From assembly GCA_038087875.1 (NCBI GenBank), contig CM075991.1:2232001-2296000 (forward strand): DNA of 64,000 nucleotides. Direction: 5' to 3'. Below the pieces are notes generated by a model. The model had not been told where the DNA came from, made no database searches, and saw only the letters and a program-made list of their open reading frames with translations. This document shows positions 14,546 to 63,563 of the stretch, piece after piece; within the stretch, counting starts at the first letter, position 1, and the number at the start of each line of letters is the position of its first letter. Source of the stretch: Malacoraja senta. Lineage: Eukaryota. The translations under genes and the position numbers were made by a program.

Positions 14546-15816
14546 TGAATCTATAGCTCTATGACGGTATAGTATATTAACAAAATATTCATCTGTTTAT
14601 CAGCATTCAGCACTTTCAGGTATAAATATAACTGAATGTCACTTTCTCAAGTTAGTAAGCAGACACTTTTGAAAAGGTTGATGACTATGAAACATTTTAA
14701 TTTTGTTGGATTTACAATGTATGAACCTGGTCTCTGTAGGTTCCAACTATCTGCTGCAGGAAGTTGGCACATTACAGATACGGTGAATGAGTATGCAGAT
14801 TCATTTGTCCCAGCTTTGTAGCTGAGGATATGGAGACATGGTGTTTGAAGACAAACCGGCTGGTCTGCAGTGATATGCAACATACCAAGTGCACAGTGGA
14901 TAAGAACCTGAAGAAGGGTCTCGACCCGAAACGTCACCCATTCCTTCTCTCCTGTCCCGCTGAGTTACTCCAGCTTTTTGTGTGCACCATCAGGACGAAG
15001 GACTCTGCCAACCCACATACCTTTCTCCGATTCACACCTCGTTGCATAAACGGGAATTTTGAAAATGTGCAAGGGACTAGATTTCTCGAACAGCTCGGCC
15101 CGAGGGTGTTGCAATCTTTTCTATGTCCCTGCCACAGGCAGATCATTTATAGAACATGTTACATGGAAAAGCACAGCACAGGAACAGGCCACTCGGCCCA
15201 CAATGTCGGTGCCGAACAACATGCCAAGCTAAACTAATCTCACCTTCAGACTGTAGAGTTCAGAGATACAGCACGGAAACATGCGCTTCGGTCCACCGAG
15301 CCCGCGCTGACCAGCGATCTCCCCATCTACTAACACTATCCTACACATTTATAATTGTACCCAAGATAATTAACCTACAGCCTTGTACGTCTTTGGAGTT
15401 TGGGTGGATGCCGGAACACCCGGAGAAAACCCACGCGGTCACGGGAAGAATGTACAAACTCCGTACAGACCCGTAGTCAGGATCGAACCCAGTTCTCTTG
15501 CACTGTGAAGCAGCAGCTCTACCACTAAGCCACCGTGCCGCCCCTAGTGTGCCTGCACGTGATCCATATCCCGCCATTCCCTGTGTATCCATGCGCCTAG
15601 TCAAAAGCCTCTTACCTCTTAAACGTCACTATCCTATCTGCCTCCACCACCATCCCTGCCAGCTCCTTCCAGCCACCCACCACCCTCTGTATAGACAACT
15701 TACCTCGCACAGCTTCAAACTTTGTCTCTCTCACTTTAATGCAGTGTCCTCCAGTCTTTGACATTCCCACCCTGTGACTTTCAGCTTACTCAGTGATCTA
15801 GCGAGACTGACACTGG

Positions 15817-18680: not shown

Positions 18681-18822
18681 CATGAATTTTCTTATCACCG
18701 TTCACTCCTTCTCAGCCCGCCTCTGGCCCCTGTCTCCCACCCGTCACTCTCTCCTCCATATTACGACTCTCTCCCCTCTCCACTCTCGATCCTGATGCGG
18801 GGCTTCAACCTGAAACATCGAC

Positions 18823-19622: not shown

Positions 19623-19740
19623 GTTAAAGAAGGAACTGCAGATGCTGGAAAATCGAAGGTACACAAAAATGCTGGAGAAACTCAGCGGGTGCAGCAGCAT
19701 CTATGGAGCGAAGGAAATAGGCAACGTTTCGGGCCGAAAC
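19623..19740 (-). mobile_element. Short Penelope terminal-repeat insertion
   Basis: 13-bp TSD ccttgaatgcagt (19610-19622, 19741-19753); near-identical to an arm of the 63290 element. Confidence 0.85.
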
Positions 19741-20032
19741 CCTTGAATGCAGTTCTTTTGCCGCCTGACGTATTAGGTGTTTCCAGTGGTCTTTGAATCA
19801 CTTGAGTTCAGCAAATCCAAATCCTTCTAAACAGCCCGCGGAAGATTCACACAACCTTGTTAGAATAGATTTTTCATCAGCAGTGAAAATCACTCTTTGC
19901 TTGTTTTCTCTGGTAGAATGGATATTTGGGGCTGGTATTCAAAGATATTTCTCTTTGTGCTGAAAATAATAGTTCGTGGTTTTAAAAGACCAATTTTCTA
20001 AGGTGATTTACCTTGCTCTACAACTTTATTGC

Positions 20033-20823: not shown

Positions 20824-23262
20824 TCAGTATCCCGTACCTGCCTTCTCTCCATACCCCCTGATCCCTTTAGCCACAAGGGCCACATCTAACTCCCTCTTAA
20901 ATATAGCCAATGAACTGGCGTCAACTACCCTCTGTGGCAGAGAGTTCCAGAGATTCACCACTCTCTGTGTGAAAAAGTTTTTCCTCATCTCGGTCTTAAA
21001 GGATTTCCCCCTTATCCTTAAGCTGTGACCCCTTGTCCTGGACTTCCCCAACATCGGGAACAATCTTCCTGCATCTAGCCTGTCCAACCCCATAAGAATT
21101 TTGTACGTTTCTATAAGATCCCCTCTCAATCTCCTAAATTCTAGCGAGTATAAGCCAAGTCTATCCAGTCTTTCTTCATATGAAAGTCCTGACATCCCAG
21201 GAATCAGTCTGGTGAACCTTCTCTGTACTCCCTCTATGGCTATAATGTCCTTCCTCAGATTTGGAGACCAAAACTGTACGCAATACTCCAGGTGTGGTCT
21301 CACCAAGACCCTGTACAACTGCAGTAGAACCTCCCTGCTCCTATACTCAAATCCTCTTGCTATGAAGGCCAACATACCATTCGCTTTCTTCACTGCCTGC
21401 TGCACCTGCATGCCTACTTTCAATGACTGGTGTACCATGACACCCAGGTCTCGCTGCACCTCCCCATTTCCTAATCGGCCACCATTTAGATAATAGTCTG
21501 CCTTCCCGTTTTTGCCACCAAAGTGGATAACCTCACATTTATCCACATTATACTGCATCTGCCAAACATTTGCCCACTCACCCAGCCTATCCAAGTCACC
21601 TTGCAGTCTCCTAGCATCCTCCTCACAGCTAACACTGCCCCCCAGCTTAGTGTCATCCGCAAACTTGGAGATGTTGCTTTCAATTCCCTCGTCCAGATCA
21701 TTAATATAAATTGTAAATAGCTGGGGTCCCAGCACTGAGCCTTGCGGTACCCCACTAGTCACTGCCTGCCATTGTGAAAAGGACCCGTTTACTCCTACTC
21801 TTTGCTTCCTGTTTGCCAGCCAGTTCTCTATCCACATCAATACTGAACCCCCAATACCGTGTGATTTAAGCTTGTATCCTAATCTCTTATGTGGTACCTT
21901 GTCGAAAGCCTTCTGAAAGTCCAGATACAACACATCCACTGGTTCTCCCCTATCCACTCTACTAGTTACATCCTCGAAAAATTCTATAAGATTCGTCAGA
22001 CACGATTTACCTTTCGTAAATCCATGCTGACTTTGTCCAATGATTTCACCACTTTCCAAATGTGCTGCTATCCCATCTTTAATAACTGACTCTAGCAGTT
22101 TCCCCACTACCGATGTTAGACTAACTGGTCTGTAATTCCCCGTTTTCTCTCTCCCTCCCTTCTTAAAAAGTGGGGTTACGTTTGCTACCCTCCAATCCTC
22201 AGGAACTACTCCAGAATCTAAAGAATTTTGAAAAATTATCACTAATGCATCCACTATTTCTGGAGCTACTTCCTTAAGTACTCTGGGATGCAGCCTATCT
22301 GGCCCTGGGGATTTATCGGCCTTTAATCCATTCAATTTACCCAACACCACTTCCCGACTAACCTGGATTTCACTCAGTTCCTCCATCTCCTTTGACCCGC
22401 GGCCCCCTGCTATTTCCGGCAGATTATTTATGTCTTCCTTAGTGAAGACGGAACCAAAGTAGTTATTCAATTGGTCCGCCATATCCTTGTTCCCCATGAT
22501 CAATTCACCTGTTTCTGACTGCAAGGGACCTACATTTGTTTTAACTAATCTCTTTCTCTTCACATATCTATAAAAACTTTTGCAGTCAGTTTTTATGTTC
22601 CCTGCCAGTTTCCTTTCATAATCTATTTTCCCTTTCCTAATTAAGCCCTTTGTCCTCCTCTGCTGGTCTCTGAATTTCTCCCAGTCCTCTGGTATGCTGC
22701 TTTTTCTGGCTAATTTGTACGCAACATCTTTTGCTTTGATACTATCCCTGATTTCCCTTGTTATCCACGGATGCACTACCTTCCCTGATTTATTCTTTTG
22801 CCAAACTGGGATGAACATTTTTTGTAGTTCATCCATGCAGTCTTTAAATGCCTTCCATTGCATATCCACCGTCAACCCTTTTAGAACTAATTGCCAGTCA
22901 ATCTTGGCCAATTCACGTCTCATATCCTCAAAGTTACCTTTCTTTAAGTTCAGAACCGTTGTTTCTGAATTAACAATGTCACTCTCCATCCTAATGAAGA
23001 ACTCAACCATATTATGGTCACTCTTGCCCAAGGGGGCACGCACAACAAGTCTGCTAACTAACCCTTCCTCATTACTCAATACCCAGTCTAAAATAGCCTG
23101 CTCTCTCGTTGGTTCCTCTTCATGTTGGTTTAGATAACTATCCCGCATACATTCCAAGAAATCCTCTTCCTCAGCACCCCTGCCAATTTGATTCACCCAA
23201 TCTATATGTAGATTGAAGTCACCCATTATAACTGTTTTGCCTTTGTTGCACGCATTTCTAAT
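20824..23262 (-). CDS. CR1 LINE ORF2 (partial APE endonuclease plus reverse transcriptase), 5'-truncated and uninterrupted; element spans ~20731-23262
   Basis: GDFN and SDH (APE); KSPGPD, NYRPVSLTS, QHGF, YLDFQKAFD, GVPQGSVLGP, FADD (RT); no stop in 800+ codons. Confidence 0.95.
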   Translation of the reverse strand: MRNACNKGKTVIMGDFNLHIDWVNQIGRGAEEEDFLECMRDSYLNQHEEEPTREQAILDWVLSNEEGLVSRLVVRAPLGKSDHNMVEFFIRMESDIVNSETTVLNLKKGNFEDMRRELAKIDWQLVLKGLTVDMQWKAFKDCMDELQKMFIPVWQKNKSGKVVHPWITREIRDSIKAKDVAYKLARKSSIPEDWEKFRDQQRRTKGLIRKGKIDYERKLAGNIKTDCKSFYRYVKRKRLVKTNVGPLQSETGELIMGNKDMADQLNNYFGSVFTKEDINNLPEIAGGRGSKEMEELSEIQVSREVVLGKLNGLKADKSPGPDRLHPRVLKEVAPEIVDALVIIFQNSLDSGVVPEDWRVANVTPLFKKGGREKTGNYRPVSLTSVVGKLLESVIKDGIAAHLESGEIIGQSQHGFTKGKSCLTNLIEFFEDVTSRVDRGEPVDVLYLDFQKAFDKVPHKRLGYKLKSHGIGGSVLMWIENWLANRKQRVGVNGSFSQWQAVTSGVPQGSVLGPQLFTIYINDLDEGIESNISKFADDTKLGGSVSCEEDARRLQGDLDRLGEWANVWQMQYNVDKCEVIHFGGKNGKADYYLNGGRLGNGEVQRDLGVMVHQSLKVGMQVQQAVKKANGMLAFIARGFEYRSREVLLQLYRVLVRPHLEYCVQFWSPNLRKDIIAIEGVQRRFTRLIPGMSGLSYEERLDRLGLYSLEFRRLRGDLIETYKILMGLDRLDAGRLFPMLGKSRTRGHSLRIRGKSFKTEMRKNFFTQRVVNLWNSLPQRVVDASSLAIFKRELDVALVAKGIRGYGEKAGTGY

Positions 23263-23394
23263 GGTCTAATAGGACAGGTTTACAAGGATATGGGCCAAAT
23301 GTAGGCAGGTGGGACTAGTGTAGTTGGGACATGTTGGTTGATGTGCACGATGGGCCGAAGGGCCTGTTTCCACACTGTGTGACTCTATGAATCT

Positions 23395-23707: not shown

Positions 23708-24080
23708 GAGTAGCAACTAGTTTCCTGCCCAGCTCAATCATGATCCTTCTTGGTCTGAAGAAACGTCACCTGCCCATTCCCCCACCATGGATATTGTCTG
23801 CCCCACTGAGGACCTCCAGCACTTTGTGTTTTGCATCATCCATTACTTCAGCCTTTGGGTAGCAGTACGTCAGGTAGGGAGCATTAACAAACCCGCCTCC
23901 CTGTACTGTAGGAGGTTTATATGTTTAAAATAAATGCGGTTATCCATATCGACTTTGAGCACAACAGCACGAAAGCTTGAAAGCACGAACCGCCAGAGTC
24001 AGAAACAGCTTCTTCCCCTCTATTATCAGGCTTAGTTTAGTTTATCGTTTAGTTTAGTTTAGCTGAGTTTAGTTTAGTTT

Positions 24081-24760
24081 AAGAAGGAACTGCAGATGCT
24101 GGAGAAATCGAAGGTACACAATAATGCTGGAGAAACTCAGCGGGTGAGGCAGCATCTATGGAGAGAGGGAATAGGCGACATTTCGGGTCGAGATCCTTGT
24201 TCAGATGGATTCGGGGGAGGGGGCAGAAAAAAGAAAAGAAAGTTGGAGGAGACTAGGACTGTGGAAGAGCCGGGATGAGGAGGGGAAGGAGGGAGAAAGC
24301 AAGGACTACCTGAAATTAGTGAAGTCAAAGTTCATACCGCTGGGGTGTAAACTACCCAAGCGAAATATGAGGTGTTGTTCCTCCAATGCCTCTCCCTGAC
24401 AATGGAAGAGGCCCAGGACAGAAAGGTCAGATTGGGAATGGGAGGGGGAGTTGAAGTGCTGGGCCACCGGGAGATCAGGTTGGTTAAGACGGACTGAGCA
24501 GAGGTGTTCAGCGAAACAATTGCCGAGCCTGCGCTTGGTCTCGCCAATATAGAGGAGTTGACACCTGGAACAGCGGATGCAGTAGATGAGGTTGGAGGAG
24601 GTGCAGGTGAACCTCTGCCTCACCTGGAAAGACTGCTTGGGTCCTTGGATGGAGTCAAGGGGGGGAGATAAAGGGCCAGGTGTTGCATCTCCTGCGGTTG
24701 CAAGGGACAAATTGACCTGGTGCCTGTCCCGCTGAATTACTCCAGCTTTTTGTGTCTATC
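24081..24760 (-). mobile_element. Penelope-like element with GIY-YIG endonuclease and inverted 5' terminal-repeat piece
   Basis: ORF 24306-24710 FTCTSSNLIYCIRCSRCQLLYIGETKRRL; inverted repeat piece at 24721-24760. Confidence 0.85.
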
Positions 24761-24910
24761 ATTAAGATAAAGTCCAGTAATGTCTAATTAAAGGTAGGCT
24801 TCTGAATGGTCGTCCCATAAGCTAGGGTACTGTCCGATTCACCTCTACCCCATTGCGGACATTGGACTTTGTCTCTGGAACTGATGCGCTACAATGCTGA
24901 GAACTATATT

Positions 24911-35935: not shown

Positions 35936-38009
35936 AAAAAAAAGAAAGCTGAATCTGGTCAATCCTTGTCAACATGGTTTTAAATAAGGTAAATCTAGTT
36001 TGACAAATTTTGCTTGAATTCTCTAACAGGAGGAGGTAATAGCGGAGAGAAATAAGGAACTGCAGATGCTGGTTTGCCCACAAAACACAAAGTGCTGGAG
36101 TAACTAAGCAGGTCAGGCATCATCTTTGGAGAACAAGGATAGATGACGTTTTGGGTCGGAACCCTTCTTCAGACTGATTATAGTTGGGGGAATACGTAGC
36201 CTAGCAAGTGATAGGTGGATACGGATGAGGGGGATTTGATTGGTAGATGGTTGGACAAAGGCCAGAGATGAAAAGAAGACAAAGGCTGTAAGATAAGAAG
36301 AGGAGTTAAATGTGAAGCCAGAGGAAGGGATCTAGGAAAAAGGAGACCTAGAAAAAGACCCGGGAACATATAGATGTAAGATGAAACAAAGAATTGCAGA
36401 TGCTGGTTTACACAAAAGAACACAAGATGCTGGAGTAACTCAGCGGGTCAGGCAGCATCTCTGGAGAACATGGAGCACATGGATGGGTGACATGGATAGG
36501 TAGATCATTGATCCTTCTTCAGACTGAGAGGAGCGAGTAGATATGAAGAGGATGTTTCCACTAGTGGGAGAGTCTAGGACGAGAGGTCATAGCCTCAGAA
36601 TTAAAGGACGTTCCTTTATGAAGGAGATAAGAAGGAATTTCTTTAGTCAGAAGGTGGTGAATCTGTGGAATTCATTGGAACAGAAGGCTGTGGAGGCCTT
36701 CAATGGATATTGTTAAAGCAGAGATAGATAGATTCCCGATTCGTACGGGTGTCTGGGGTTGGGGAGAAAGGAGGAGAATGGGGTTAGGAGGGAGAGATGG
36801 ATCATCCATGATTGAATGGCGGAGTAGACATGCTGGGCCGAATGGCCTAATTCTGCTCCTATTCCTTATGACCTTATGTAATGCATTTAGATTTCCAAAA
36901 GGCATTTGACAAGATGCCAGGTAACAGGCTGGTTCATAAATTAAGAGAGCAAGGTACTGAAGGACGTGTGTTGGCTTGAAAACTGGCTCTGGCATTGAGA
37001 ACGAAGGAGTTGGAATCCTTCTTAGGCAGAGTGTTGAGGCTGGTGAATTATCTCAGAGGTTGGTTCTTGGCTCTTCATGTTTTTAACTATTTACATTAAT
37101 GACCTGGAGGGGAGAATGAAATGTAAGTTTTTCAAGTTTGCCGGTGATGTGAAAATAGCTGGGAGATGAGTTTGTGATAAGGACTATGATTCTGCAATGG
37201 GAAATACTAGATAGATCGAGTGTTTGGAGTTTAGTTTTGTTTAGTTTAATTTAGTTTAGATACAGTACAGAGCAGAAACAAACCCTTCGGCCCACCGAGT
37301 CCGCCACATATTGACACTATCCTGCACACACTAGGGACAAATTTATATTTTATATATTCCGAGCCAATTAACCTATAAACCTGTACGTCTTTGGAGTGTG
37401 GGAGGAAACCGAAGATCTCGGAGAAAACCCACGCAGGTCACGTGGAGAAAGTACAAACTCTGTAAAGACAGTCAGGATCGAACCCGGGTCTCTGACGCTA
37501 TACGGTAGCAACTCTACCGCTACGCCACCATGTCATGTTAATGAGATGAGGAAAGTCTTCTTCACCCTGAGAGTTGTGAATCTGTGGAATTCTCTGCCAC
37601 AGAAGGTAGTGGAGGCCAATTCACTGGATGTTTTCAAGAGAGAGTTAAATTTAGCTCTTAGGGCTGACGGAATCAAGGGATATGGGGAGAAAGCAGGAAG
37701 AAGGTACTGATTTAGGATGATCAGCCATGATCATATTGAATGGCAGTGCTGGCTCAAAGGGCCGAATGGCCTACTCCTACACATATTTTCTATGTTTGTA
37801 TGTTTCTAATGTGGGGAAGAGTGTGGTCATGCACTTTGGTAAGAGGAATGGAGAATCAGATGACTATCTAAATGGAGAGAGACAACATGTGGGCAAAGTT
37901 TACAGGGATTGAGGTGATCAGGTGGAAGAATCACAAATGTTTGAGACACAAGAGATTACAGATGGTGGCAAACCAAAGTCCAATAAAGCAGCACCATGAT
38001 CTCCTGACT

Positions 38010-38880
38010 CTGTCCAGTCCTTTCAGATGAGGCTGGGGTTCACTTGGACCTCCTCCAACCCATTCTACTGTATCCGATGTTCTAGGTATGGGTTTCTATA
38101 TACCGGAGAGAACAAGCACAAACTGGGCAATCGTTCAGCTGAATGCCTTCACTCAGTCCATCTTGACCTACGCGATCTCCCGGTTGCCAAACACTATAAT
38201 TCCCTCTCCCATTCCCACACTAACCTTCCCGTCCTGGGCCTCCTCCACTGTCAGAGTGAGGCCACTCTCAAATTCGAGGAACAGCATCTCATATTATGCT
38301 TGGGCAGCTTACACCCCGGTATGAATATTGATCTCTCTAAGAATCCTGTCCCACTTTCACGACCTAGCTCACAAACATTTTTACTCGTGGACATTTTTCA
38401 TCATGCTAGAAAAACGCCCCGACGTACTTGATGCCACGAGTACCTACGACGAGCATCACGGCCTGCTACGACCTACCTACGACCTCCTACAACCTCGTGA
38501 CGACCATGCTGCGAGTATGAGTCAAGGGCAAACTCTGCAGAGGTCGTGAATTAGGCCGTGAAAGTGCGACAAGCCCTTAACTTTAAGTAAACCTTGCTTC
38601 TCTTCTCTCTCTGTTCCTCACCGAGCCTAGTTGTCGTACTAGTTTCACTGTCGTCCTGTTGAGTTTCACCGTCTCCACAGCCAACAATGGACCATTGTGG
38701 GCTCCACCCTGCCTTGATCACCATCGTTGGCTTTGATTTGTCCTTTTGCATACCTTTCATTCAATTGTTCTATGTTCCTCTTCATATCTCTCGTTTCCCT
38801 CTCCCCTTGACTCTCAGTCCGAAACGTCTCCTATTCCTTTTCTCCAGATATGCTGCCTGACCTGTTGAGTTGCCCCAACT
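38010..38880 (+). mobile_element. Penelope-like element 3' part, split by a MITE
   Basis: ORF 38027 FYCIRCSRYGFLYTGE...EEQHLILCLGSLHPGMNID; terminal repeat at ~38815-38880. Confidence 0.8.
38341..38577. mobile_element. PIF/Harbinger-like MITE
   Basis: taa|GAATCCTGTCCCACTTTCACG ... CGTGAAAGTGCGACAAGCCCT|taa; removal restores the Penelope sequence tctctaactttaag. Confidence 0.85.
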
Positions 38881-39015
38881 TTTAACCTTAAGGGTGGAGG
38901 CCGGCGCAATAGAAATATTTACGATGGAGATAGGTAAGTATTTGAAGGATCGAGGAATCGAAGGGGGCGGGGAGCTGGCTCAGAAGTGGAGCTGAGGCCA
39001 GCATAGATCAGCCAT

Positions 39016-39115
39016 AGAACAGGTCTGAAGAAGGGTCTCGACCCGAAACGTCACCAATTCCTTCGCTCCATAGATGCTGCCTCACCCGCTGAATTTCTCC
39101 AGCATTTATGTCTGC
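39016..39115 (+). mobile_element. Short Penelope terminal-repeat insertion with hammerhead motif
   Basis: catagatcagccat duplicated at 39002-39015 and 39116-39129; CTGAAGA..GAAACGTC core at 39025-39052. Confidence 0.8.
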
Positions 39116-40361
39116 CATAGATCAGCCATGACAGATGTGAATGGCGGGATAGGCTTGAGGGGCCGAGTGGCCTACTTCCTTGCGTTGTAACGCCTGTACA
39201 ACTACAGACTCAGCAAGATGTATCACATCTGCTACACACACGGGTGCTGCCTGATATTTTTTCCACCTCATGTAGAAACACACACTATGAAGAAAATCTC
39301 ATAGCGACCCTTATTTCCACCCAGAGAGGGGCCCTGGTAAAACATACATCCTGTCTCTTCCACAGAATAGGTCACTAAGAGGACGTGTGTAAATCAAAGA
39401 ATCTAGAGCATGTGCATGATAAAAGTATCCAGAAGAGTTACTAAATGCTGTGAAATGGGTCGGAATGCTCACTTGGTTGGCTGAGGGTCATTCAGGAGGA
39501 ATCTCATCATTTTGTCCCAGACTATTTTGGGGATATCCCCCTGAGACCGTTGACATGTGGACCATCATTTAATTTCTTCCCAAATCAAACTGGTCACAAC
39601 TGGACTCAGAAAATTCGACTGGGGCCTCGAGAACAGATCATTTTGTTTCTTAAAGCAGATTTTCCAATCTGTTGATGGACTCAAACAGCTGGAGAAACTC
39701 GGCAGGACAGGCAGCATCTCTGGATAAAAGGAATGGGTGGCGTTTCGGTTTAACCCTTCTTCAGGGCCGACCAGTCTGACTGTCCTCCTGATTAAATTTT
39801 ATCTTTGTTAGCTTTGTTGTCACCTTCCCCCAAGCTAACAATGATCTATTTTACATATTCATTAATCTCAGTCCCCTTTAATCTCTCGTTTTGACACCTT
39901 ACCCTTCCATATCTCTGTGTCTCCCTCTCCACTGACTCTCAGTCTGTAGAAGGGTCTCGACCTGAAACGTTACCCATTCAGCATTTACAGCGCCAGAAAC
40001 CCGGGTACGATCCTGACTACGGGTGCTGTAGTGTTTGAGTTTGTACCTTCTCCCTGTGACCTGCGTGGGTTTTCTCCAAGATCTTCGGTTTCCTCCCACA
40101 CTCCAAAGAAATACAGGTTTGTAGGTTAATTAGCTTGGTATAAATGTAAATTGTCCCTAGTGTGTGTAGGGTTGTGTTAGTGTACGGGGATTGCTGTTCG
40201 ATGTGCACTCGGTGGGCTGAAGGGCCTATTTCTGCGCTGCATCTCTAAACTAAACTTAACTGAACTAAACTAACCCACTTCCTCAGCCACTCCCTACACA
40301 TGTGGGACAATTTACAGAGGGCCAATTAACCTATACCAGTCTATACTCGTGACTGCGAGTT

Positions 40362-41991: not shown

Positions 41992-42785
41992 AGTGCCTCA
42001 GAGACCATTCCCTCCGCAACTCCCTGGTCAACTCGTCCCTTCCCGCCAAAACCACCCCCTCCCCAGGTACTTTCCCCTGCAACCGCAGGAGATGCAACAC
42101 CTGTCCCTATACCTCCCCCCTCGACTCCGTCCAAGGACCCCGACAGTCTTTCCAGGTGAGGCAGAGGTTCACTTGCACCTCCTCCAACCTCATCTACTGT
42201 ATCCGCTGTTCCAGGTGTGGAGTCCTATATATTGGCGAGATCAAGCGCAGGATCGGCGATCGTTTCACTGAACACCTCCGCTCAGTCCGCCGAAACCTTC
42301 CTGATCTCCAAGTTGTTAAACACTTTAACTCCCCCTCCCATTCCCACACTGACCTTTTTGTCCTGGGCCTCCTCCATTGTCAGAGTGAGGCCCAACGCAA
42401 ATTGGAAGAACAGCATCTCATATTTTGTTTGGGCAGCTTACACCCCAGCAGCATGAACATTGACTTCTCTAACTTGTAGCTGTAACCCTTGCTTTCCCTC
42501 TCTCTCCATCCCTCCCCCGCCCAGTTCTCTGACCAGTCTCACTATCTCCGCCTTCATTTTATCTCTGTTTGCTTTGTTGTTACCTTCTCCCAGCTAACAA
42601 TGATCTATTCTACACTCTCCTTGATCTCCTTTCCCTTTGTCCTATTTTCACACCTCACACTTCCTTTTCTATGTATTTCCCTCTCCACTGACATCAGTCT
42701 GAAGAAGGGCCTCGACCCGAAACGTCACCCATTTCTTCTCTCCAGAGATGCTGCCCGTCCCAGCATTTTGTGTCTATCTTCAATG
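41992..42785 (+). mobile_element. Penelope-like element 3' part: GIY-YIG plus terminal repeat
   Basis: ORF 42156-42479 LIYCIRCSRCGVLYIGE..RRIGDRFTEH; hammerhead core at 42699-42726. Confidence 0.9.
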
Positions 42786-44213
42786 AAGTTGGCTGCTTTC
42801 CCGAGGCAGCGTGAAGTGTGGATGGAGTCAATGGTGGGGAGCCTGGTCTGTGTGGTGGACTGGGCTACCTCCACAACTCACTGCTATTTCTTGTGGTCTT
42901 GGGCAGAGCTGTCCATCCTTTTGTCTCTTGTTCTGTACTATGTTTACATATTCTGTTGTGCTGCAGCAAGCAAGAATTTCATTGTCCTATCTGGGACACA
43001 TGACAATAAAACTCTCTTGACTTGACTAAACCAAAATGCGATGCAAGCCGACAGTATGTTTTCTACGGTGCTTCTGTAATGCAATGAGTATAGGTGGCCC
43101 GTCTGTAATCACTGCATGCAGGGCCGTGACTGTAGACTGTGTGTGCTCTCTGATTCGCTATACTTTCTCTCTTCAGCAGTTCCCCATGTCAATGAGTTCG
43201 AGTGCCCCACCACTAACGGAGGTCAGCCGGTTTAAACCTATTAGAGTGCACTCAATTAAACGTCAACTATCTGGTGAGAGCTAAATAAAAGCTCACTTGT
43301 TGATACAAGCCTGCCGCACCAGGGCAGAGTCAGCGTGGTCCTTTCCGGCACGTCTTATCTGTTTCCCAGATGCAAAGTGGAGTGGAGCATGTGAATAGGT
43401 CCCTATCCTGCACGGCACATACACTCTGGAAAGCTTATAGATGACCTACTGCTTGTAAACACTTCAGCCCAACATCTAAAATATCAGGACATTGTCCAGA
43501 CAATATCGCCAAGAACACATGCTGTTCACTGACTTTCCAGTGAACTTCTCCTGATTCTTAAAATACCCACCAAAGACAATTGCAGAAATGAATCGATTTT
43601 TCCCCCCAGCTTTGTTGAGTCTGTTAGATTCCATCCATTTTCACGGTTGTCCCCGGTTGCTCCAATGTTTTTTTCTGTTCTTTCATCGGCTTTTGTCCCT
43701 TGTTTTCACTTTATTTTGAGAACTTGCACCGTGGTGCAAGGGTGGCCCAGCGCCAGAGTACGCGGGTTCGATCCTGGGCTCGGGTGCTGTCACTGCCGAG
43801 TCTGCACGCTCTCCCTGTGACCACATGGGGTTTCTCCTGGGTGCTCCGGTTTCCTCTCACGTCCCAGACGTGCGGGTTTGTAGGGAATTGTCCCTCTGTA
43901 AATTGCCCCTCGTGTGTAGGGAGTGGATGAGAAAGTGGGATAACATAGAACTAGTGTGAATGGGTAATCGGTGGTCGACGTGGACTCGATGGGCCGAAGG
44001 GCCTGTTTCCATGATAATCTTTCAATCGATCAAAAATAACTGCCACCACACCTCAGTCCAAGCCCATGCAAACCTCCTGGCTCTGATAACAACAAACCAG
44101 TTTCTCCTCATTATTAAAGACTCCATCTCAGGCACCATCTTCCTGAATCTCCTCTGCATCCTCTCCTGTACAAACACAGCTTCCTACCATGCAGGTGGGC
44201 GATTTAACGATGG

Positions 44214-45862: not shown

Positions 45863-46681
45863 TATGCTCGTGTGTGTCCCAGAGCCGATGGGATCCAAGG
45901 CAACTGTTTGGCAGAAGACTCACAGGGGGATCTGAGTGTAGTTTATTTCCAGTTGTGATTCACCCTGGGAAAAATAAACATGCAAAGGGGAAATGAGAAA
46001 CATAATTGCTGGCTTTCAACTATCATTTTAGCCATTCGTTGTTCCATGTCGGTACATGTGACGTTAAAACACTCTTGACACTTGACACAAAGCTTTAAGA
46101 ACAACTTGTATTTTAAGATACATAGATAGATAGATAGAAACTTTATTTGCCACACGACCAGGGTTGGTGGTAATTGGGTTCGGTACATGATGGTACACTG
46201 CTTTAGCACATTAACACTAATAACAACACAGATCATAATAATAAAGCACATCACAAATCACAAATCTCACCAACAATACACAGTGCAAAAGAACAGACAA
46301 AAATCATAGACAAGACACTGTATACATCAAAGTCAAAAAGTTATTGGAGGGAATTAAGTGTTCTTATTGCTGAGGGGAAGAAACTGTTTTTAAAACGGGT
46401 GGATTTTGTAGCAAGTGCACTACAAATGCAGCAAGAAGTTTCACTGAGGCATTGTAAGCAAATGGGATCCCATTCCCATTCCCAGACTGACTGTTCTGTC
46501 CTCCATTGTCAGCATGAGGCCACATGCAAACTGGAGGAACACCACCTCATATTCTGCTTGGGTAGCTAACAACCTAACGGTACGAACATTGAAGATAGAC
46601 ACAAAATGCTGGAGTATCTCAGCGGGTCAGGCAGCATCTCTGAAGAGAAGGTATGGGTGACGATTCGGGTTGGGACATACG

Positions 46682-46936
<255 letters not shown>

Positions 46937-47275: not shown

Positions 47276-47949
47276 TCTCTATAAAAACTAAAAGTCTTCG
47301 TCTTGTTTGTGTCTGTGTGTGTGTGTGTGCGTGTGCGTGTGTGTCAATTTGGTTAATTCCTATTTTCTTCCAAACGCTAGGCCACAGCCTTCCCATTTTC
47401 ACCCATTCTACTCACATTTTCCTCCTGGTGGCGATAAACATCTTCCCGTCGCATTTCCACCTATATTTCCAAAGTTATTCATTATAAAAAATAATTAAAA
47501 AGGCAAAAGCTGCCTTCTCACAGTGATGATGTCACAATGCCTCTCACAGAGCACCAATAATGCTGGGCTCTCAAGCTGGCTGCCAACTGCCACAATGACA
47601 TCACAATGGGACGTTGCCAATGGTAACGAGGTTGCTGCCCCTCTACCAATATCTGAAGGTGCTGCTCATCAAATTCTGGTTGCATTTTGGTCCCACGATC
47701 CTTGTGTTTGGGCACAAGGCAGGGAGTGGGGAGGGCCGATCGGGGGGGTACTCTCATCGCAACCCCATCACAACCCCCATCCCCCCCATCCGCCCCCACC
47801 CCCCGCCAAATCCCTCGTACACATCCCCCCTGAGCGCTCCCCTGCCCCCACGCTCCGCCCCGCACCCCCCCTTCCCCCCGGGATGAATGCCGACGCCGCC
47901 CCCCCGCCCACGTTGCAGGGCGGGGCCCAATGGGTCCCACTTGGTCTAG
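47276..47949 (+). mobile_element. Non-autonomous Helitron
   Basis: a|TC 5' end; 3' GC hairpin GGGGCCC-aat-GGGTCCC 11 nt before the end; CTAG|t; no TSD; internal (TG)n. Confidence 0.8.
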
Positions 47950-49124
47950 TACTATTTAAAATTCTTTCAGGGAGCAAATAACTTGCATTTATGAGGCTGT
48001 TAGATAGGCCCATGGGTATGCGGGGAATGGAGGAATATGGATCACACACAGGCAGAGATTAGTTTAACTTGGCATCATGTTCGGCATGGACACTGTGGGC
48101 TGAAGGGCCTGTTCCTGTGTTGTACTATTCTGTGTTCTTGCTGGAAAATCTATGTAGATTAAGTGCAGGAGAGAACAAATGTCGTTTGATGCCCTCTAAG
48201 AGAAAATAATGCTCACATTCGTAAGTTCATAAGACAGAGAAGCAGAATTAGGCCATTCAGCCCATTGAGTCCACTCCGCCATTCGATCATGGCCGATTTA
48301 TTTTCGCCTCTCATCCCCATTCTCCTGCCTTCTCCCTGTAACCTTTGACACTTTTACTTGTCAATCTCTGTTTTAAAAATACCCAAAGGCTGAGTTTGAA
48401 CTTTTTCCCCGTGACCTGCGTGGGTTTTCTCCGGGAGCTCCAGTTTCCTACCACGCACCAAACACATACGGGTTTGTAGGCTAATTGGCTTGGTAAAATT
48501 GTAAATTGTCTCTAGTGTGTGTAGGATAGAGTTAGAGTGCGGGGATCGCTGTTTGGCATGGTATCGCGGTCCGCGCTGTATCTCTAAACTAAACTAAACT
48601 TGGCTACCACAGCCGTCTGTGGCAATTAATTCCACAGATTCACCACGTTAAGGAAAGTATAAGAGGCCTGGCGATGTTGAACTGCTGCCGTGGTTCTGAA
48701 AGAGTTAAATCACAGGCAGCTCAGAGTGCGTTCACACGATCTTACTCTCTGACAAATCTCCACGTGCTTCCCCACACATGAACACAAACATTCCACTGCC
48801 TAAACCTTCCTCTGGGGACACTGGCAGTTCATGTGACAGGATGAGGGCTGTCTAAAGTGGCCAAGGTCCCATTTCGGAGCTTGTCAGCTTGTTCAGTACA
48901 CAGCAGCAACACCTTTGTTATGAGTTCTGCCTTTCCACTGCACTCAGTGTGATCTACAGTGCAAGGCAGATGCATTCTGAAGTGAACTCAGAACTGCAGA
49001 TGCCGGTTTACAAAAAAAAAAGACACAAAGTGCTGGAGTAACTCAGCAGGTCCGGCAGCATCTCTAGAGAAAAAGGTTGGATGATGTTTGGATTGGGCCT
49101 GAATAAAAAGGAGAATAGTACAAA

Positions 49125-50288: not shown

Positions 50289-50749
50289 GAGGAGGCAATG
50301 TTGTGTTGGAAGGAACTGCAGATACTGGTTTTAACCGACGATAGACACAAAAAGCTGGAGTAACTCCGCGAGACAGGCAGCATCTCTGGAGAGAAGGAAT
50401 AGGTGAAATTTCGGGTCAAGACCCTTCTTCAGACTCGGATCCAAAATGTCACCTATTCCTTTTCTCCAGAGATGCTGCCTGACCTGCTGAGTTGCTCCAG
50501 CTTTTTGTGTCTATCTTCAGCCAATGTTGTTTGACTGTTTAAGAAGGACAGATGTGGCAAACTAGAAAAGTTATAGGACATTGAGCTTTACATCAGCTGC
50601 AATAATATTAGTGGAGAAGATTCTTTGGGATGGGATCTACACATGTCTGCAAAACCATGCAAGTGTTTAGGGACAGCCAACATGTCTTTGTGCAGTGGAA
50701 GTCATGTCTTACAACATTAATATGTTTCTTGAGGAGGTTACAATAGTGA

Positions 50750-53412: not shown

Positions 53413-54614
53413 TGTTTCCACGTTGTACCTTTCAATCAATTAAAACTCTAATAAGACCCCGAATGAGACTTTGATCATCATTCCTCTTCCCATCCCATTT
53501 AGATATGGACAGCACATTTTCGTTTTAGATTTTATACTTTTGACTTTCGAGATCCATTGCGGAAACAGGCCTTTGGGACCACCTTGTCTGCACTGAATCG
53601 CAATCCCCATACACTAACACTCCCCTACACATTTTTACTAATTTTCCAAAGCCAATTATCCAACAAACCTGCATGTCTTTGCAATGTGGGAGGAAACCGG
53701 AGCATCCAAAGAAAACCCGGAGAAAACTAACGCGGAAGACGTACAAACTCCATACAGACAACGCCTGAATGAAAACACACATTTTCATTCAATGGAAACA
53801 TAGAATGTAGAACAGTACAGGAACAGGTCCTTCGGCCCGAAATATCTGTGCCGAACATGATGCCAAGACCAACTCTTATCTGCCTTCACATAATCCATAT
53901 TCCTCCATTCCCTGCATATCCACATGCCTGTCAGACAACCTCTTAAATGCCACTATCATATCTGCCACTGCCAATCCTGGCACCATGCTCAGTGCACCCA
54001 CCACTCTGTGTGTAGAAACTTGCCCCGAACATCTCCTTTAAACTTTGCCCCTCTCGCCTTAAAGTTACGCTCTCTAGTCTAATATTTCCATGCTGGGGAA
54101 AAGAAAGGTTCTGACTGGCTTCCTTATTTATGCCTCTCATCATTTTATTTACTTCTATCAGATCCCCCCCCCTCCGTCTACAATGCTTCAGCGAAAACAA
54201 TCCAAGTCTGTCCAAGCTCTCCTGTAGCTAATACCCTAATCAAGATGCCCCATCTCAGCGAGTCCCATTTGCCCACATCTGATCCATATCCCTCTAAACC
54301 CTCCCTCTCCATGTGCCTGTCCAAGTGCTTTCTAAATGCTTTTTATTGTGCCTACATTTACACAGCCCTCAAACAGCACAGATACTTATCCAATGCACCA
54401 TCACTTCTAGGCTGAAGATGGACACAGAAAGCTGGAGTAACTTAGCGGGTCAGGTAGCCGGTCTGACAGTCAGTCTGAAGAAGGGTCTCAACCTGAAATG
54501 TCACCTATTCCTTTTCTCCAGGGATGCTGTGATACTCCAGCTTTTTGTGTCTGTCTATGGTTTAAACCAGCATCCTACTGTACATATACCAAAAACTTAA
54601 TCTGCCTGTTGAAA

Positions 54615-56047: not shown

Positions 56048-57032
56048 TTACAGCGCCAGAGACATGGGTTCGATCCTGACCATGGGTGCTGATTGTACGG
56101 AGTTTGTACGTTCTCGCCATGATCACGTGGGTTTTCTCCGGGCGCCCCGGTTTCCTCCCACATTCCTCAGACGTGCAGGTTTCTAGGTAAATTGCCTTCA
56201 AATTGTCCCCAGTGTGCAGGTTAGAACTAATGTACGGGTGATCGCAGGTCGGAGTTAACTCAGCAGCCCAAATGGCCTGTTTCATGCTGTATCGCTAAAA
56301 TTAATAACTAAAGATGATGATCATCTCCAATCGACACATTAGTGTGAGCAAGTCTTACAGGTTAGTTAATGAGTCCTGTAGAAGAGACTGTAGAATGTCC
56401 CTCCACAGATGCTGTCTGGCCCGCTGAATTCCTCCAGCAATTTGTTTTGTCAGGTTCAGCTTTAGGTTTGTTATTGCGTGTGTACCTAGGTACAGTGAAA
56501 AGCTTTCTTTTGCATCCTATCCACACAGATCTGATACACCATACATGAATGCAATCAACTCAAATTCAAGTACAATGCATAGCGCAAAGGGCAAGATGCA
56601 GAGGGCAGAATATAATTCTCAGCTTTTAGCAGCAGTTCCATTGACAAAGTACGATCTCACAAAGGGGTAGAGGTGAATTGGTCACTAGATTAGTGAAGGA
56701 CTGTTCAGAAGCCAGATAACAGAGTGGAAGAAGCTGTTCCTCTGGTTGTCCTCGCTTTCACGTTCTGCACCTTCCGCTGATTCAGGAGGAGGGAGAAGAC
56801 GGAACGACCATAGTGGAATGTTGTTGAAGGCAGACACAAAAAGCTGGAGTAACTCAGCGGGTCAGGCAGCATCACTGGAGAGAAGGAACAGGTGACTTTT
56901 CGGACGGTGTGATCCACCTTCAGACTGAGTCAGGGGAGAGGGAAGCCAGAGGTATGAAAAGGTACAGAACAAAGCAGGGCCGGCTCCGATGGCCGAAGAT
57001 GGCTGCTTCTCTGTGGCACTGTGAAGTGTAGA

Positions 57033-57372: not shown

Positions 57373-58514
57373 GTGAAGTGTAGATGGAGTCTGGTCTGTG
57401 TGATGGACTGGGCTACATCAACAACACTTCTTGCTTCATGGACTGTCTGTCCCTGAAATGTTCTATTGAATGCAGACACAATATTGTACTGGCAAAAAAT
57501 GTGTAAAAATGCCCAACGCAACAGTGTCCACTAATAGAAGTAACAAGCAGGAAGGAACCGCTGATGCTGGTCTATAGCGAAGATAGACACAAAATGCTGG
57601 AGTAACTCAGCATCTCCGGAGAGAATAAGTTTCGGGTCCAATCTGAAGAAGGGTCTCGACCCGAAACATCACCCGTTCCTTCTCTCCAAAGATGCTGCCT
57701 GTCCCGCTGAGTTACTCCAGCAATTTTTGTGCCTTTCTTCAATTAAGGTAATGCTATTTGGTTTAAAAGGTCAGGAAGAGTAAACAATAAGGTTGAATTT
57801 CCACAGGGGACTGTGCTGTAACTTAAATGGAAAATCTGCAGGAGCTCTGGAGAAACAGCATAAGCAATGTGATATCATCTACATCAGCCCCTTGAAGTGC
57901 TGGGCAGAATGACTGTCAAAGTTACGGAAGCAATTGAAAGACCCTCCTGTGGAAATTCCACCTTCAATTTGATTGCAAGAGACTGCTGCAATAACTCTGC
58001 AAAATTAACTAAAGCTCTACCTGAAAAGAATCAGATTAAGGTTCACGAATTGTCATTTCAAAGAGAAATGAAGTCACGCAAGATTGAGCTGAAATTTGAA
58101 GTGCTACTGTATTTTCCATGTGGGCTAAGCTCACACAATAGACCTGAACATATCATTGTCCCCCAGTGTTCAAGCCAGAATCTTGTGTCAACTCAATTAT
58201 TAAAGTTCTCCTGTGAAAGATTGCCCCTGAAGTTTTTTAAGCTTATTTTATCCAGAACTCCTGTTCCCATCTCTCTCCAGACTAATTACTGCTCTTCGAT
58301 GCCTCAAGCTACAAACCGTTCGTAATTCTGACCAAGGTTCTATATATATTCCTCCTTGCACATTATGGACAACACACAGTGGCGCAACTGGCAGAACCAC
58401 CGCCTCACAGCGCCAAAGACCCAGGTTCAATCCTGACCATGGGTACTGTCTATGTGAAGTTTGTACATACTCCCTACAGTCACCATGTGGGGTTCTACTC
58501 CAGTTCCCTCTCAG

Positions 58515-59140: not shown

Positions 59141-59411
59141 CTTGTCCTACTTGATAAAGCTGGGCAAAGCAGTTGTTTCCTGGGGAGAATTACGGTGGAA
59201 AACCACTTATACCCATTGATATTTATCAACCGGAGTTAAAACGTATAAAATGTCTGGGAAAAACATTGAAATGAACATTAAAAAGACACAAAGTGCTGGA
59301 GTAACTCAGCGGGACAGGCAGCAACTCTGGAGCACATGAACATGTGACGCTTCGGGTCGAGACCCTTCTTCAGAAACCAGCATCTGCAGTTCTTTATTTC
59401 TACATTAAAGT

Positions 59412-60254: not shown

Positions 60255-61278
60255 GTAGCTTTTTCAGGTTGGCTGCCAGAGACTAGAGGGGTTCGGCAAG
60301 GGTCAGTGTTGAGCCTTCTCTTCACGTTGTATATTAATGATTTGGAGAGGGGGATTGAAGCCTTTGTGGCCAAGTTTGCGGATGATGTTAGGATGGGTGG
60401 ATGGGCAGGCAGTGCTCTGCAAAGTCTCTGCAGAAGGACTTGGACAGGTTAGGAGAGTGGGCAGAGAAGTGGCAGATGAAATTCAGTGCAGCAAAGTGCG
60501 GAGTCATGTATTTTGTAATAAGAATATAGGCATAGATTATTTTCTACATGGAGAGAGAATCCAGAAATCGGAGGTGCAAAGGGACTTGGGAGTGCTGGTG
60601 CAGGACTCCCAAAAGGTTAATTTGCAAGTCGAATCGGTAGTCAAGGAAGGCAAATTCAATGCTAGCATTTATATCAAGAGGTCTGGAATTTAAAAACAGA
60701 GATAAAACGCTGAAGCTCTATAAGGTGCTGGTCAGGCAGTATTTGAAGAACTGTGAGCAAATTTGGGCCCCATATCTGAGGAAGGATGTGCTGGCTGGAG
60801 AGGGTCCAGAGGAGGTTTACAAGAATGATTCCAGGAAGGAGTGGGTTAGCATATGATGAGCGTTTGACAGCACTGGGCATCTACATGCTGGAGTTCAGAA
60901 GGTTAAGGGGGGACCTCATTGAAACTCACAGAATTATGAAAGGCACAGATAGAGTGGATGTGGAGAGGATGTTTCACTGGTGGGAGAGTCTAGGACCAGA
61001 GGCTACAGCCTCAGATTAAAGGGCGCTCTTTTAAAATGGAGGTGAGGAGAAACTTCTTTAGTCAGAGGGTAGTTAATCTGTGGAACTCATTGCCGCAGAG
61101 GGCTGTGGAGGCCAAGTCAGTAGATATTTTTAAGGCAGAGATTAGAACGGGTGTCAAGGGTTATGGGGAGGAGGCAGGAAAATGGGATTAGATGCAGAGA
61201 TCAGCCATGATTGAACGGCGGAGTAGACCCAATGGGCCGAATGGCCGAATTCTACTATAACTTGTGAACTTGTGAACA
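60255..61278 (+). mobile_element. Degraded CR1 RT 3' half
   Basis: gccaagtttgcggatgat (AKFADD); frameshifted ORFs 60337-61019; tail. Confidence 0.9.
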
Positions 61279-61364
61279 TGCTCTTCTTTGAAGCCTTGAG
61301 CTTGAAAGATTTTTTTAGAGATGGGGATCGTGTGAAAATTGGTCAGGTTACAGATCGATACTTA

Positions 61365-61805
61365 AGGGCCTGTCCCACAGGCATGTGACTCCATGCGGCA
61401 AGCGCGACCTAACCGCAAGCGGGGGCCGCCCAGAGGTCGAGTGATCCCGTACAGGGCCGGTCCCACCAGCATGCGGCTGCATGCGGCAAGCGCTACCAAA
61501 TCAGAAGCGGGGGCCGCGCGGAGGTGGAGTGACGTCAAGACGGTGCGTACGGCGGCGAGGCGGTGCGCACGGCCTCGATGCGGCTGCGGGGCGGCAGGCC
61601 GTTGCCGCACGGAATTTTTTGAATAGTGTCAGTTTTTCGGAGCCCCGCGCGATGTCGGGACCAAGCTCCGCACAACTCCATACGGCTCCGGCGATCGAAA
61701 TAGGACGGCCCCGCGACCTCCGCGCAGCCCCCGCACGGCCCCCCGCTTGCGGGTTTAGGTCGCGCTTGCCGCATGGGAGTCGCATGCGCCCGTGGGACAG
61801 GCCCT
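61365..61805. mobile_element. PIF/Harbinger-like GC-rich MITE
   Basis: tta|AGGGCCTGTCCCAC ... GTGGGACAGGCCCT|taa; inverted arms extend ~65 bp. Confidence 0.85.
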
Positions 61806-63289
61806 TAACTGCAGAGTGGGGTTGGGAGGCATGAGACCAACTCATACTTTCATTTCCAAGTCGATAGCTCCATGAATGTAGCAACACAGATAGATAAAGT
61901 GATAAAGAAGGCATACATATTATGCTTGTCTTCATCAGTTGGGCATTGAGAATAAGCGTCAGAAGTCATGTTACGTTTATAGGCCTTTGATGAGGCTGCA
62001 CGGAGTAGTGTGTGTGCCGTTCTGGTTGCCTCAGAAATGTTGCCGGAGGTTTTCCAGGCTGCTGCCCGGATTAAAGAGTTTAGCTATGAGGCGAATCACA
62101 AAGCACTGGAGTAACTCAGTGAGTCAGGCAACATCTCTGGAGTACATGGATAGGTGACATTTCAGGTCGAGACTCTTCTTCAGACTGATTGTCAGACCAA
62201 CCACCTGACCCGCTGAGTTACTCCAGCTTTCTGTGTCTATCTTCGGCCAGAAGTGATGGTGCATTGGATAAGGATCTGTTTCTATGGCCTAATTATACTC
62301 CTATCTCTTATGATCATATGAACGTCTAGGCTAATGTGTTGTACATCAATAATTCAATTTGCCCTGTGTAAAGTACAAAGATGCTAACTAGATGCTAACA
62401 TCGCAACAGGGATGCTGCTTAACCCACTGAGTTACTCCAGCACATTTTGTATACCAGCACCTGCAGTTTCTCGTTCTGCAGCCAATAGAGGTTGGAGAAA
62501 CTTGGGTTGTTAGAAGCATGTAAAATTAAGAGAGGCATAGATAGGGTAGACAGTCAGAATCTTTTGCCCAAATGGAAAACCCAAATCCTAGAGGGCATAC
62601 CTCTAAGATGGGAAGGGCAACATATGGAACACCTATCCATGTTCTCCAGAGTTGCACATTGCAGGCACAGTGGTGCCTGGAATGTGCCGTCAAGGGTAAA
62701 CGTGGAGGCAGATACGATGGTATAGGATTTTTTTTTCAATTTAGTTTATTGTCACAGTGAAAATCTTTGGAGTCGGAACCCTTCTTCAGACTGATTGCAG
62801 GAGGGGAGTGGGGAAAGAAAGCTGGGAGAGAGAAGCATCAGGTCGAGGCGTGGCATGCATTGGGGTGAACACAGGCGGGGGGGCGGCGGGGCAGAGGATA
62901 GGCAGATGTTGGACATTGGCCAGAGATTAAGCTACAAGGTGTGAGACAAAAGGATTGAAGAATAGTGAATTGTGAAGCCAGAGGAAGGAATGTAGGTGGA
63001 ACGGAAGGGGAGGGGGGAAATAGGTTGTGGGGGGAAGAGGGGGAGAGGGGTTTATGTTAGAAGCTACCTAAAATTGGTGAATTCAATGTTCCTACCATTG
63101 GATCGAGGTTTTTGGATAGGGTGATGGATATGCAGGGAATGGAGGGATACGGATCACGTCCAGACATGGCTTAGTTCGCCTCACGGACATTGTTGGATGA
63201 CGAGCCTGTTCGTGTGATACCGTTTTATCTTCTTGTGTTATAAGGTGGCTGAAAAAAGTTTCAATGTCAAACAGAAGAAGTCACCGTGA

Positions 63290-63563
63290 GTAGACAAAAG
63301 TGCTGGAGAAACTCAGCGGGTGCAGCAGCATCTATGGAGCGAAGGAAATAGGCACGTTTCAGCGAAACCCTTCTTCAGACTGATGTCCCCACCAGTCCCC
63401 ATCAGTCTGATGTCCCCACCAGTCCCCATCAGTCTGAAGAAGGGTTTCGGCCCGAAACGTTGCCTATTTCCTTCGCTCCATAGATGCTGCTGCACCCGCT
63501 GAGTTTCTCCAGCATTTTTGTCTACCTTCGATTTTCCAGCATCCGCAGTTCCTTCTTAAGCAT
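63290..63563. mobile_element. Fold-back Penelope terminal-repeat element
   Basis: ~97-bp near-perfect inverted arms; 13-bp TSD gaagtcaccgtga; hammerhead core at 63434-63461. Confidence 0.9.

Follow-up and report, generated by a model that had tools for sequence, protein, structure and literature searches.

Hammerhead motifs at the 3' ends of putative Neptune-type Penelope-like elements in a 64-kb stretch of Malacoraja senta DNA

Introduction

Why does a single stretch of Malacoraja senta DNA carry a score of hammerhead-like motifs on both strands, and do these motifs matter to the transcripts of the host or only to the element that spread them? A preliminary description of the 64,000 nt analysed here (hereafter the window) had read the motifs as minimal type I hammerhead ribozymes in the terminal repeats of Penelope-like elements (PLEs). 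Minimal hammerheads (min-HHRs) occur in the Xena, Poseidon and Neptune elements of fishes; coelacanth has about 4,000 of them and Xenopus 9,000, most of them solitary (Cervera and De la Pena 2014, PMC4209133). As described there, their consensus holds CUGANGAH, an extra nucleotide after position 9, before 10.1, and a palindrome, helix I ranges from 2 to 6 bp with 2 bp in Drosophila, Culex and Oikopleura motifs, and motifs of full-length elements are spaced by 2.1-3.6 kb. The monomer tested in that work was inactive and multimers or dimers were weakly active; an engineered D. virilis motif with extended helix III cut. The role of PLE hammerheads has been called unclear (Craig et al. 2021, PMC8557442). 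The ribozyme of PAc, a Poseidon element of Anolis carolinensis, needs the protein of the element in order to cut, and in vitro insertion proceeds without it; no RNA-seq ends were found at its cut site, and the tail was ascribed to a pair of internal priming sites (Frangieh et al. 2024, PMC11167929). Other PLE features on record are a tail of 30-40 nt and arms that are inverted and 5'-truncated. Here we examine the motif family of the window, its carrier element and the junctions of its insertions.

Results

The focal motif

The focal motif, CTGAAGA-A-GGGC-CTCG-ACCC-GAAA-CGTC, occupies 42699-42726 of the plus strand, 220 nt past the stop of a GIY-YIG-type frame (41994-42479, 161 aa), and its predicted cut lies between 42726 and 42727. 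The core elements CUGANGA ... GAAA ... UH are present in type I order, as they are in 10 of the 20 copies described below. Stem II has 3 bp, with a C-A mismatch at its top, and stem I has 2 bp. A target duplication was sought for the focal unit and not found. The unit consists of the following parts.

41994-42479, plus strand: 5'-truncated C-terminal fragment of a PLE ORF, with CX4CxxC linker and GIY-YIG endonuclease
42480-42695, plus strand: pyrimidine-rich 3'UTR/pLTR 5' of the focal motif, which varies among subfamilies
42694-42700, plus strand: TCAGTCT on the 5' edge of the motif, a 5'-junction hot spot that contains a YAG
42697-42728, plus strand: focal minimal type I hammerhead motif, with 2-bp stem I, CUGAAGA, extra A, 3-bp stem II, GAAA, ACGU palindrome and GUC
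42727-42782, plus strand: 3' terminal part of the element, which stops at the first of two 3' ends, has a private deletion of about 14 nt and lacks a tail

The hammerhead covariance search that had been proposed as a check came back empty: Rfam models gave no hammerhead among 11 window-wide matches at E<=5, nor among 2 matches at E<=10 in 42620-42800 (181 nt). Matches to mir-577 and mir-130 stayed below the gathering score and were discarded as hairpins of inverted arms.

A family of motif copies

With a 30-nt copy from the window as query, 14 sites were found at an edit distance of at most 5 and 19 at a distance of at most 8, where 30 third-order Markov simulations yielded 0 each and a mean of 0.27, respectively. 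The strict pattern CTGANGA..GAAACGTH matched five times against 0.03 expected, and none of 100 shuffles reached five. Every one of the 20 sites listed in the preliminary description maps to a genuine family member, although several differ from the motif given there: the copy near 19723 begins within stem II and lacks CUGAAGA, the one near 62770 is broken off at GAAA, those at 24204, 36172, 39764, 39944, 59373 and 63378 have altered cores, and both CUGAUGC variants combine A9>C with a broken palindrome. The list also missed 56923 (minus), a half-core at 36522 (minus) and two copies that lack the 5' core, at about 4086 (minus) and 38810 (plus).

The copies that bear CUGA number 20, of which 8 are on the plus strand (one per 8 kb) and 12 on the minus strand (one per 5 kb). 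Ten have an intact core (6 plus, 4 minus). The pairing palindrome is kept in seven of these ten, and six of the seven also have a stem I of 2-3 bp; these fully formed copies, 6 of 20, include four on the plus strand and amount to one per 16 kb or 32 kb of a strand. Perfect ACGU together with stem I is found in four copies (6088, 39025, 42699 and 63434).

The extra A between positions 9 and 10.1 is present in 18 of 20 copies. It had been likened to a viroid hammerhead; the trait itself stands and matches the min-HHR consensus, where it is standard for the class, so that the analogy is not needed. A viroid hammerhead with an extra core nucleotide, attributed to CChMVd, is said to have been described by De la Pena and Flores in 2001. 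The CChMVd hammerhead belongs to a circular RNA and is complete and active as a monomer; it shares the unpaired nucleotide between A9 and G10.1, and differs from the motif studied here, in which helix III is absent.

Target duplications of 8-14 bp flank 5 of the 16 units examined, and at least these five are thus separate insertions. Many units are head-to-head pairs, and copies stop at either of two 3' ends that lie 30-40 nt apart. At least five UTR types run into the common 3' end, and TCAGT 5' of the core is common to three of them. The copies other than the focal one are listed by position; "no single strand" marks units with arms or tails in both orientations.

4017-4466, minus strand: copy of a separate UTR type, without CUGAAGAA and the 5' side of stem II
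6061-6088, minus strand: intact core, ACGU, 2-bp stem I; UTR complete as far as the end of the ORF
10774-10801, minus strand: CUGAUGC-type, decayed, with A9>C and G12>A and without GUC
12241-12268, minus strand: intact core, broken palindrome (ACAT), different UTR family
14908-14935, plus strand: perfect core and palindrome; the insertion begins at C3, hence no stem I
18792-18819, plus strand: CUGAUGC-type (A9>C, ACAT), interrupted by another repeat just past the cut site
19623-19745, minus strand: 5'-truncated, with its start in stem II and no CUGAAGA; a tail is present, and the target duplication has 13 bp
24079-24762, minus strand: GIY-YIG fragment, short UTR, motif at 24177-24204 with G8>C, and tail; inverted 3' piece at the 5' end
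36145-36172, minus strand: G12>A copy of a different UTR family, with tail
36510-36527, minus strand: half-core (5' core alone), then a rearrangement
38015-38883, plus strand: second copy of the UTR type of 4017-4466, likewise without 5' core; an insertion interrupts it at the ORF end
39025-39052, plus strand: intact copy with 3-bp stem I, the third pair being made of non-UTR junction bases; 14-bp target duplication
39684-39980, no single strand: head-to-head pair of a decayed minus arm from C3 39764 and a plus arm with UTR and motif 39944 (A6>U)
50309-50519, no single strand: inverted pair whose minus arm begins 3 nt upstream of C3; motif 50405-50432 with broken palindrome; 9-bp target duplication
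54417-54575, no single strand: inverted pair; plus-strand motif 54475 with intact core and AUGU
56894-56923, minus strand: decayed copy with A9>G and altered stem II
57551-57740, no single strand: inverted pair; plus-strand motif 57643 with intact core and ACAT
59284-59400, no single strand: minus-strand motif 59346-59373 (A15.1>G) with an inverted tail ahead of it; target duplication of 8 bp
62097-62245, no single strand: inverted pair; minus-strand motif 62156-62183; duplicates the 54.4-kb unit including its flank
62762-62789, minus strand: copy broken at GAAA
63286-63557, no single strand: head-to-head pair of a decayed minus motif (C3 63378) and an intact, tailed motif on the plus strand at 63434-63461 (GUU); target duplication of 13 bp

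Several of these units show peculiarities of their own. At 39016-39024 nine non-UTR bases, partly complementary to the post-cut strand, stand between target duplication and core, and may be a tiny inverted arm or chance. One inverted PLE unit occurs twice with its flank, at 54378-54529 and 62129-62279 (89% over 152 nt), from which we conclude that it was duplicated together with its surroundings. The copies at 4017-4466 (minus) and 38015-38883 (plus) both lack 17-18 nt spanning CUGAAGAA and the 5' side of stem II, which reflects either a core-less subfamily that still spread or a microhomology deletion that happened twice. A CCAGCAT repeat stands about 15 nt before each of the two 3' ends (63434-63557, 24079-24204, 50309-50432), and the CAGCAUC of the tail can pair with an upstream GAUGCUG box; this is a possible sequence basis for two priming sites. 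A PLE 3' fragment (46587-46676, minus) and a GIY-YIG fragment (46360-46593, plus) adjoin a (GATA)64 microsatellite at 46682-46936; microsatellite targeting has been proposed for Neptune elements (PMC8557442).

The carrier element

The ORF fragment 41994-42479 matches Pfam GIY-YIG with E=0.008, below the gathering score, and is 57-70% identical to shark and ray proteins; its longer relatives carry a reverse transcriptase (RT; 97 matches). The motif follows the end of a GIY-YIG ORF at 42699, 24204 and 6088. The original reading as minimal type I hammerhead motifs in Penelope-like terminal repeats is supported. By its linker the clade is not Penelope/Poseidon. In the focal ORF a C-x4-C-x2-C linker precedes the nuclease, and a regular expression for CX2-5CxxC was positive in 79 of the 97 long relatives. 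This linker marks Neptune and Nematis and is missing from Penelope/Poseidon as these are described by Craig et al. (2021, PMC8557442), and Neptune and Poseidon alone were found in a survey of vertebrate PLEs (preprint 10.64898/2026.07.22.740005). The presence of the linker, taken with that survey, leads us to call the carrier Neptune-type rather than Penelope/Poseidon, a call made from the linker in fragments, which is also a mark of Nematis.

In common with the Neptune clade (PMC8557442) are the CX2-5CxxC linker before a C-terminal GIY-YIG, the pLTR, the tail and inverted 5'-truncated arms; in difference from it a PLE RT domain is absent from the window, where RT-region matches came only from one chimeric protein against LINE ORFs. 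The sites of the window would then be the 3' ends (pLTR and tail) of a Neptune-type PLE of cartilaginous fish, with clade and subfamilies judged from fragments.

Three-frame translations of 11 copies, compared with the N-termini of 107 relatives, gave no significant match that would place an ORF start (best E=0.55). Protein-based searches of genome and viral contig sets found no relatives. The motif pattern matched once in viral and once in metagenome contigs, each time in unrelated DNA of prokaryotic appearance, and we put both matches down to chance. Receptor-transporting-protein-3-like gene models of one skate and one shark both end in the element's GIY-YIG sequence, and these joins may be an old fusion or a common annotation artefact.

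The window holds other features besides. An uninterrupted 813-aa LINE frame with endonuclease and RT domains (20824-23265, minus) suggests by its integrity a young copy. GC-rich stretches at 11373-12200, 47500-48000 and 61000-62000, the last with a CpG o/e of 0.94 and an 88-nt tandem, are without Pfam match and could be promoter-like or repeat-derived. A long near-perfect inverted repeat at 2398-2472 has two weak miRNA-model matches and is unrelated to the PLE motif.

Conservation, pairing and folding

Identity to the commonest letter in 16 copies was 154/160 in the core, 219/265 in the post-cut bases, 506/560 in the downstream boxes and 62/144 upstream, where different UTRs and unrelated flanks are pooled. 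When the C3-G5 anchor is left out the core keeps 106 of 112 letters. The comparison of core and flanks, proposed earlier as a check, gave a divided answer: with copies picked partly by core likeness, which favours the core, conservation of the anchor-free core exceeds that of the post-cut bases (p=0.002) and does not significantly exceed that of the downstream boxes (p=0.20).

Pairing and covariation were evaluated in the 15 gap-free copies, the other 5 of 20 being left out for indels or truncation. The paired fraction is 92% in stem II, 60% in stem I and 87% in the palindrome. The first pair of stem I forms in 14, the second in 11 and the third in 2 of the 15 copies; 10.1-11.1 is G-C or G-U in all 15; the palindromic 15.1-16.1 is C-G in 8, U-G in 3 and broken in 4, with the breaks on a CpG. 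For these 15 sequences only, the covariation score of 0.211 compares with 0.191 in shuffled data (reached in 83 of 500 shuffles) and is higher than in any of six slid controls. In three subfamilies the majority letters preserve every catalytic position, and where subfamilies differ, at stem II, position 1.1 and H17, pairing or a permitted triplet is retained. The conservation data are compatible with a hammerhead structure, of which they are no proof.

Energy models, which ignore hammerhead tertiary contacts and proteins, gave stem II a probability of at most 0.11 in four of five monomers and 0.9 in 39025, and ACGU:ACGU pairing at most 0.011 in all five model dimers. The preferred fold is often a hairpin between core and post-cut strand. 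As an evolved inhibitory structure this hairpin was rejected: none of 14 copies beats shuffled 3' strands at p<0.05 (0.08-0.94), and base composition therefore explains it.

These results bear on the best surviving rival explanation, according to which the motif is catalytically dead even in the element, is kept as part of an internal promoter or as a protein-binding 5' leader, and resembles a hammerhead by descent. A stem I of 2 bp, whose third pair is so rare, the covariation not above shuffles, the anchor-free core that does not significantly exceed the downstream boxes, the Rfam models without a hammerhead match and the TCAGT shared by three UTR types all point that way. Against it stand the catalytic positions kept in the majority letters of three subfamilies, the pairing or permitted triplets retained where subfamilies differ, the 2-bp helix I published for Drosophila, Culex and Oikopleura and the cutting by the helix-III-extended D. 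virilis motif (PMC4209133). We regard a dead motif as possible but rather unlikely.

Junctions at the 5' edge of the ribozyme

The position of a 5' junction reveals the RNA end met by the reverse transcriptase. The 5' starts of 30 insertion arms were mapped, where two duplicate arms were dropped, 10801 and 18792 were omitted as having no alignment, three starts were assigned manually and three long arms were scored as beginning far upstream. Among the 22 starts within -15 to +100 of C3, six fall in -4..0, a window picked after inspection of the data (p=0.0003 against uniform; 0.006 allowing for 23 windows). Only 1 of the 30 arms starts within 2 nt of the cut site. The junctions thus gather at the 5' edge of the ribozyme, not at the cut site.

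Contigs from four public runs of four studies were aligned to 42000-42830; these are assembled contigs whose RNA status is guessed. They show the same pile: loose ends before 42696 occur in 153, 85, 36 and 818 contigs, those before 42695 number 31 and 558 in two runs, and no entry at the cut site is among the 24 listed of 2,831. The loose parts are long (median 150-255), with an agreement of 0.32-0.37, as unrelated flanks would give; some may be inverted arms that stayed unmapped, since the focal copy is tailless and carries a deletion. The consensus letter directly before 42696 is G in all four runs, C being excluded there by construction.

On its simplest reading the pile of junctions suggests that insertion uses uncleaved RNA, stopping or switching at the 5' edge of the ribozyme. 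Candidate causes are a transcription start, template switching at the near-palindrome TCAG-T-CTGA and a stall at a bound protein. TCAGTCT at 42694-42700 fits the initiator consensus, and cap copying adds a G. As a tentative and on balance doubtful proposal, transcripts might start at this edge, run-off reverse transcription might give the "ribozyme plus tail" copies, and the ribozyme might be a decapping switch on the element's mRNA. The start would then be the initiator-like A of TCAGTC, 3 nt before C3; internally primed reverse transcription would run off the capped 5' end and leave abundant, strong-stop-like copies of 100-135 nt; and cleavage would remove a capped leader of 31 nt, so that the motif would act as a decapping switch instead of a cutter of tandem units. 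A transcription start would explain the pile at -4..0, the G before the A in four of four runs, the head-to-head inversions and the 2-bp stem I.

A pyrimidine tract and a YAG lie just 5' of helix I (42680-42698), and by eye they also do so in many published PLE motifs. In D. virilis an internal promoter and an intron 46 nt past the start are described (PMC2377424), and the end of that intron likewise shows a pyrimidine tract and YAG. A possible intron in which the UTR would be spliced out between a donor where the ORF ends and the YAG ahead of the core, so that the frames join, is unsupported, as no such GT..AG joint is among the 15 joints listed (494 more exist). In the literature covered, which leaves out most subscription papers, no report of a junction hot spot at the 5' edge turned up; the coverage plots in Fig. 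S2 of Frangieh et al. may bear on it.

Discussion

The window presents a motif that follows the end of a GIY-YIG ORF. UTRs of several types lead into it, insertions are flanked by target duplications and stop at two 3' ends, and half of the cores have decayed. We consider it likely, with good confidence, that PLE 3' ends with the known min-HHR were inserted independently at these sites, for the most part 5'-truncated and often in inverted form, and that the scattered copies are, as we infer, mostly inert. Several Neptune-type subfamilies would insert their 3' ends (pLTR, with a tail or none), each with a minimal type I hammerhead that would serve processing or switching of the element's own tandem transcript. 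Insertion would proceed mostly from uncleaved RNA, and the dispersed genomic copies would be passengers that cut host RNA rarely if ever.

The preliminary description had supposed that any transcript through the locus meets about one motif per 3 kb. This count is not supported, since it pools both strands, half of the copies are core-damaged, published motifs were inactive as monomers, weak as dimers and in the lizard element dependent on its protein, and no host exon was detected: none emerged among 140 of 143 candidate non-repeat frames (at least 55 aa) scanned, which matched RT, ALKBH8_N (read as a LINE-derived stretch) and two weak sub-threshold models. Most copies are solitary and partly decayed, and cutting of host RNA is probably not to be expected. 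The rival explanation in which the scattered motifs do cleave host transcripts throughout the locus, with ACGU pairing in cis or in trans, could draw on the six of 20 fully formed copies with four on the plus strand, and on the weak cutting by published dimers (PMC4209133). The fully formed same-strand copies 39025 and 42699 lie 3.7 kb apart, near the 2.1-3.6 kb spacing of full-length elements, so that distance alone leaves a dimer possible and runs counter to inertness. The empty exon scan, the hammerhead fold disfavoured in energy models, the occupation of both strands (8 against 12) and the lizard element, for which no RNA-seq ends were found at the cut site (PMC11167929), speak against active copies, which we hold to be very improbable.

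Non-LTR retrozymes are head-to-tail tandem repeats, reported in one chondrichthyan (Li et al., preprint 10.64898/2026.07.22.740005); they share with the present family a type I hammerhead of PLE pLTR origin and chondrichthyan occurrence, and differ in their tandem head-to-tail units, of which the window has none. That the short copies are such a self-standing non-autonomous family (retrozyme or SINE-like) spreading via circular RNA would suit this report and the excess of motif-plus-tail over ORF-bearing pieces in the window and in aligned contigs (depth being a rough guide), but is very unlikely, for no tandem motif array is among 31 tandem-repeat entries, the 5' ends vary and are not at the cut site, the same sequence continues into the GIY-YIG ORF at 42699, 24204 and 6088, and the smallest same-strand gaps, 589-919 nt, fall between separate insertions.

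As independent insertions of PLE 3' ends the copies compare well with the metazoan min-HHRs described in PMC4209133. Both have CUGAAGA with one extra nucleotide, G10.1-C11.1, GAAAC-GUH, a palindromic 15.2/16.2 and no helix III, as well as a pyrimidine-rich upstream tract, mostly solitary truncated copies and some close opposite-strand pairs. The earlier reading of the palindrome as serving a dimer agrees with that consensus. The differences are that no cartilaginous fish is among the 56 motifs of Fig. S3 of that report, that stem II is short here (4 bp and a 4-nt loop) and the 2-bp stem I at the published low end, and that two copies with A9>C lie outside the published consensus. With PAc (PMC11167929) the family has in common a motif about 85-135 nt upstream of two alternative 3' ends, a tail of 30-40 nt, inverted arms that fit extension of both target strands and 5' ends that are not piled at the cut site. 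Here, in contrast to PAc, the linker is Neptune-type, no link of the motif's frame to an ORF start was found and activity is a prediction from sequence.

PLE ends of fishes, coelacanth, frogs and reptiles were already known to carry min-HHRs, and a putative Neptune-type family of cartilaginous fish is added here. As a catalogue entry its value is small; as a genome with many copies it offers a good natural experiment on the role of PLE hammerheads. Should transcription be confirmed to begin at this 5' edge of the ribozyme, this would give the PLE hammerhead a concrete and testable role.
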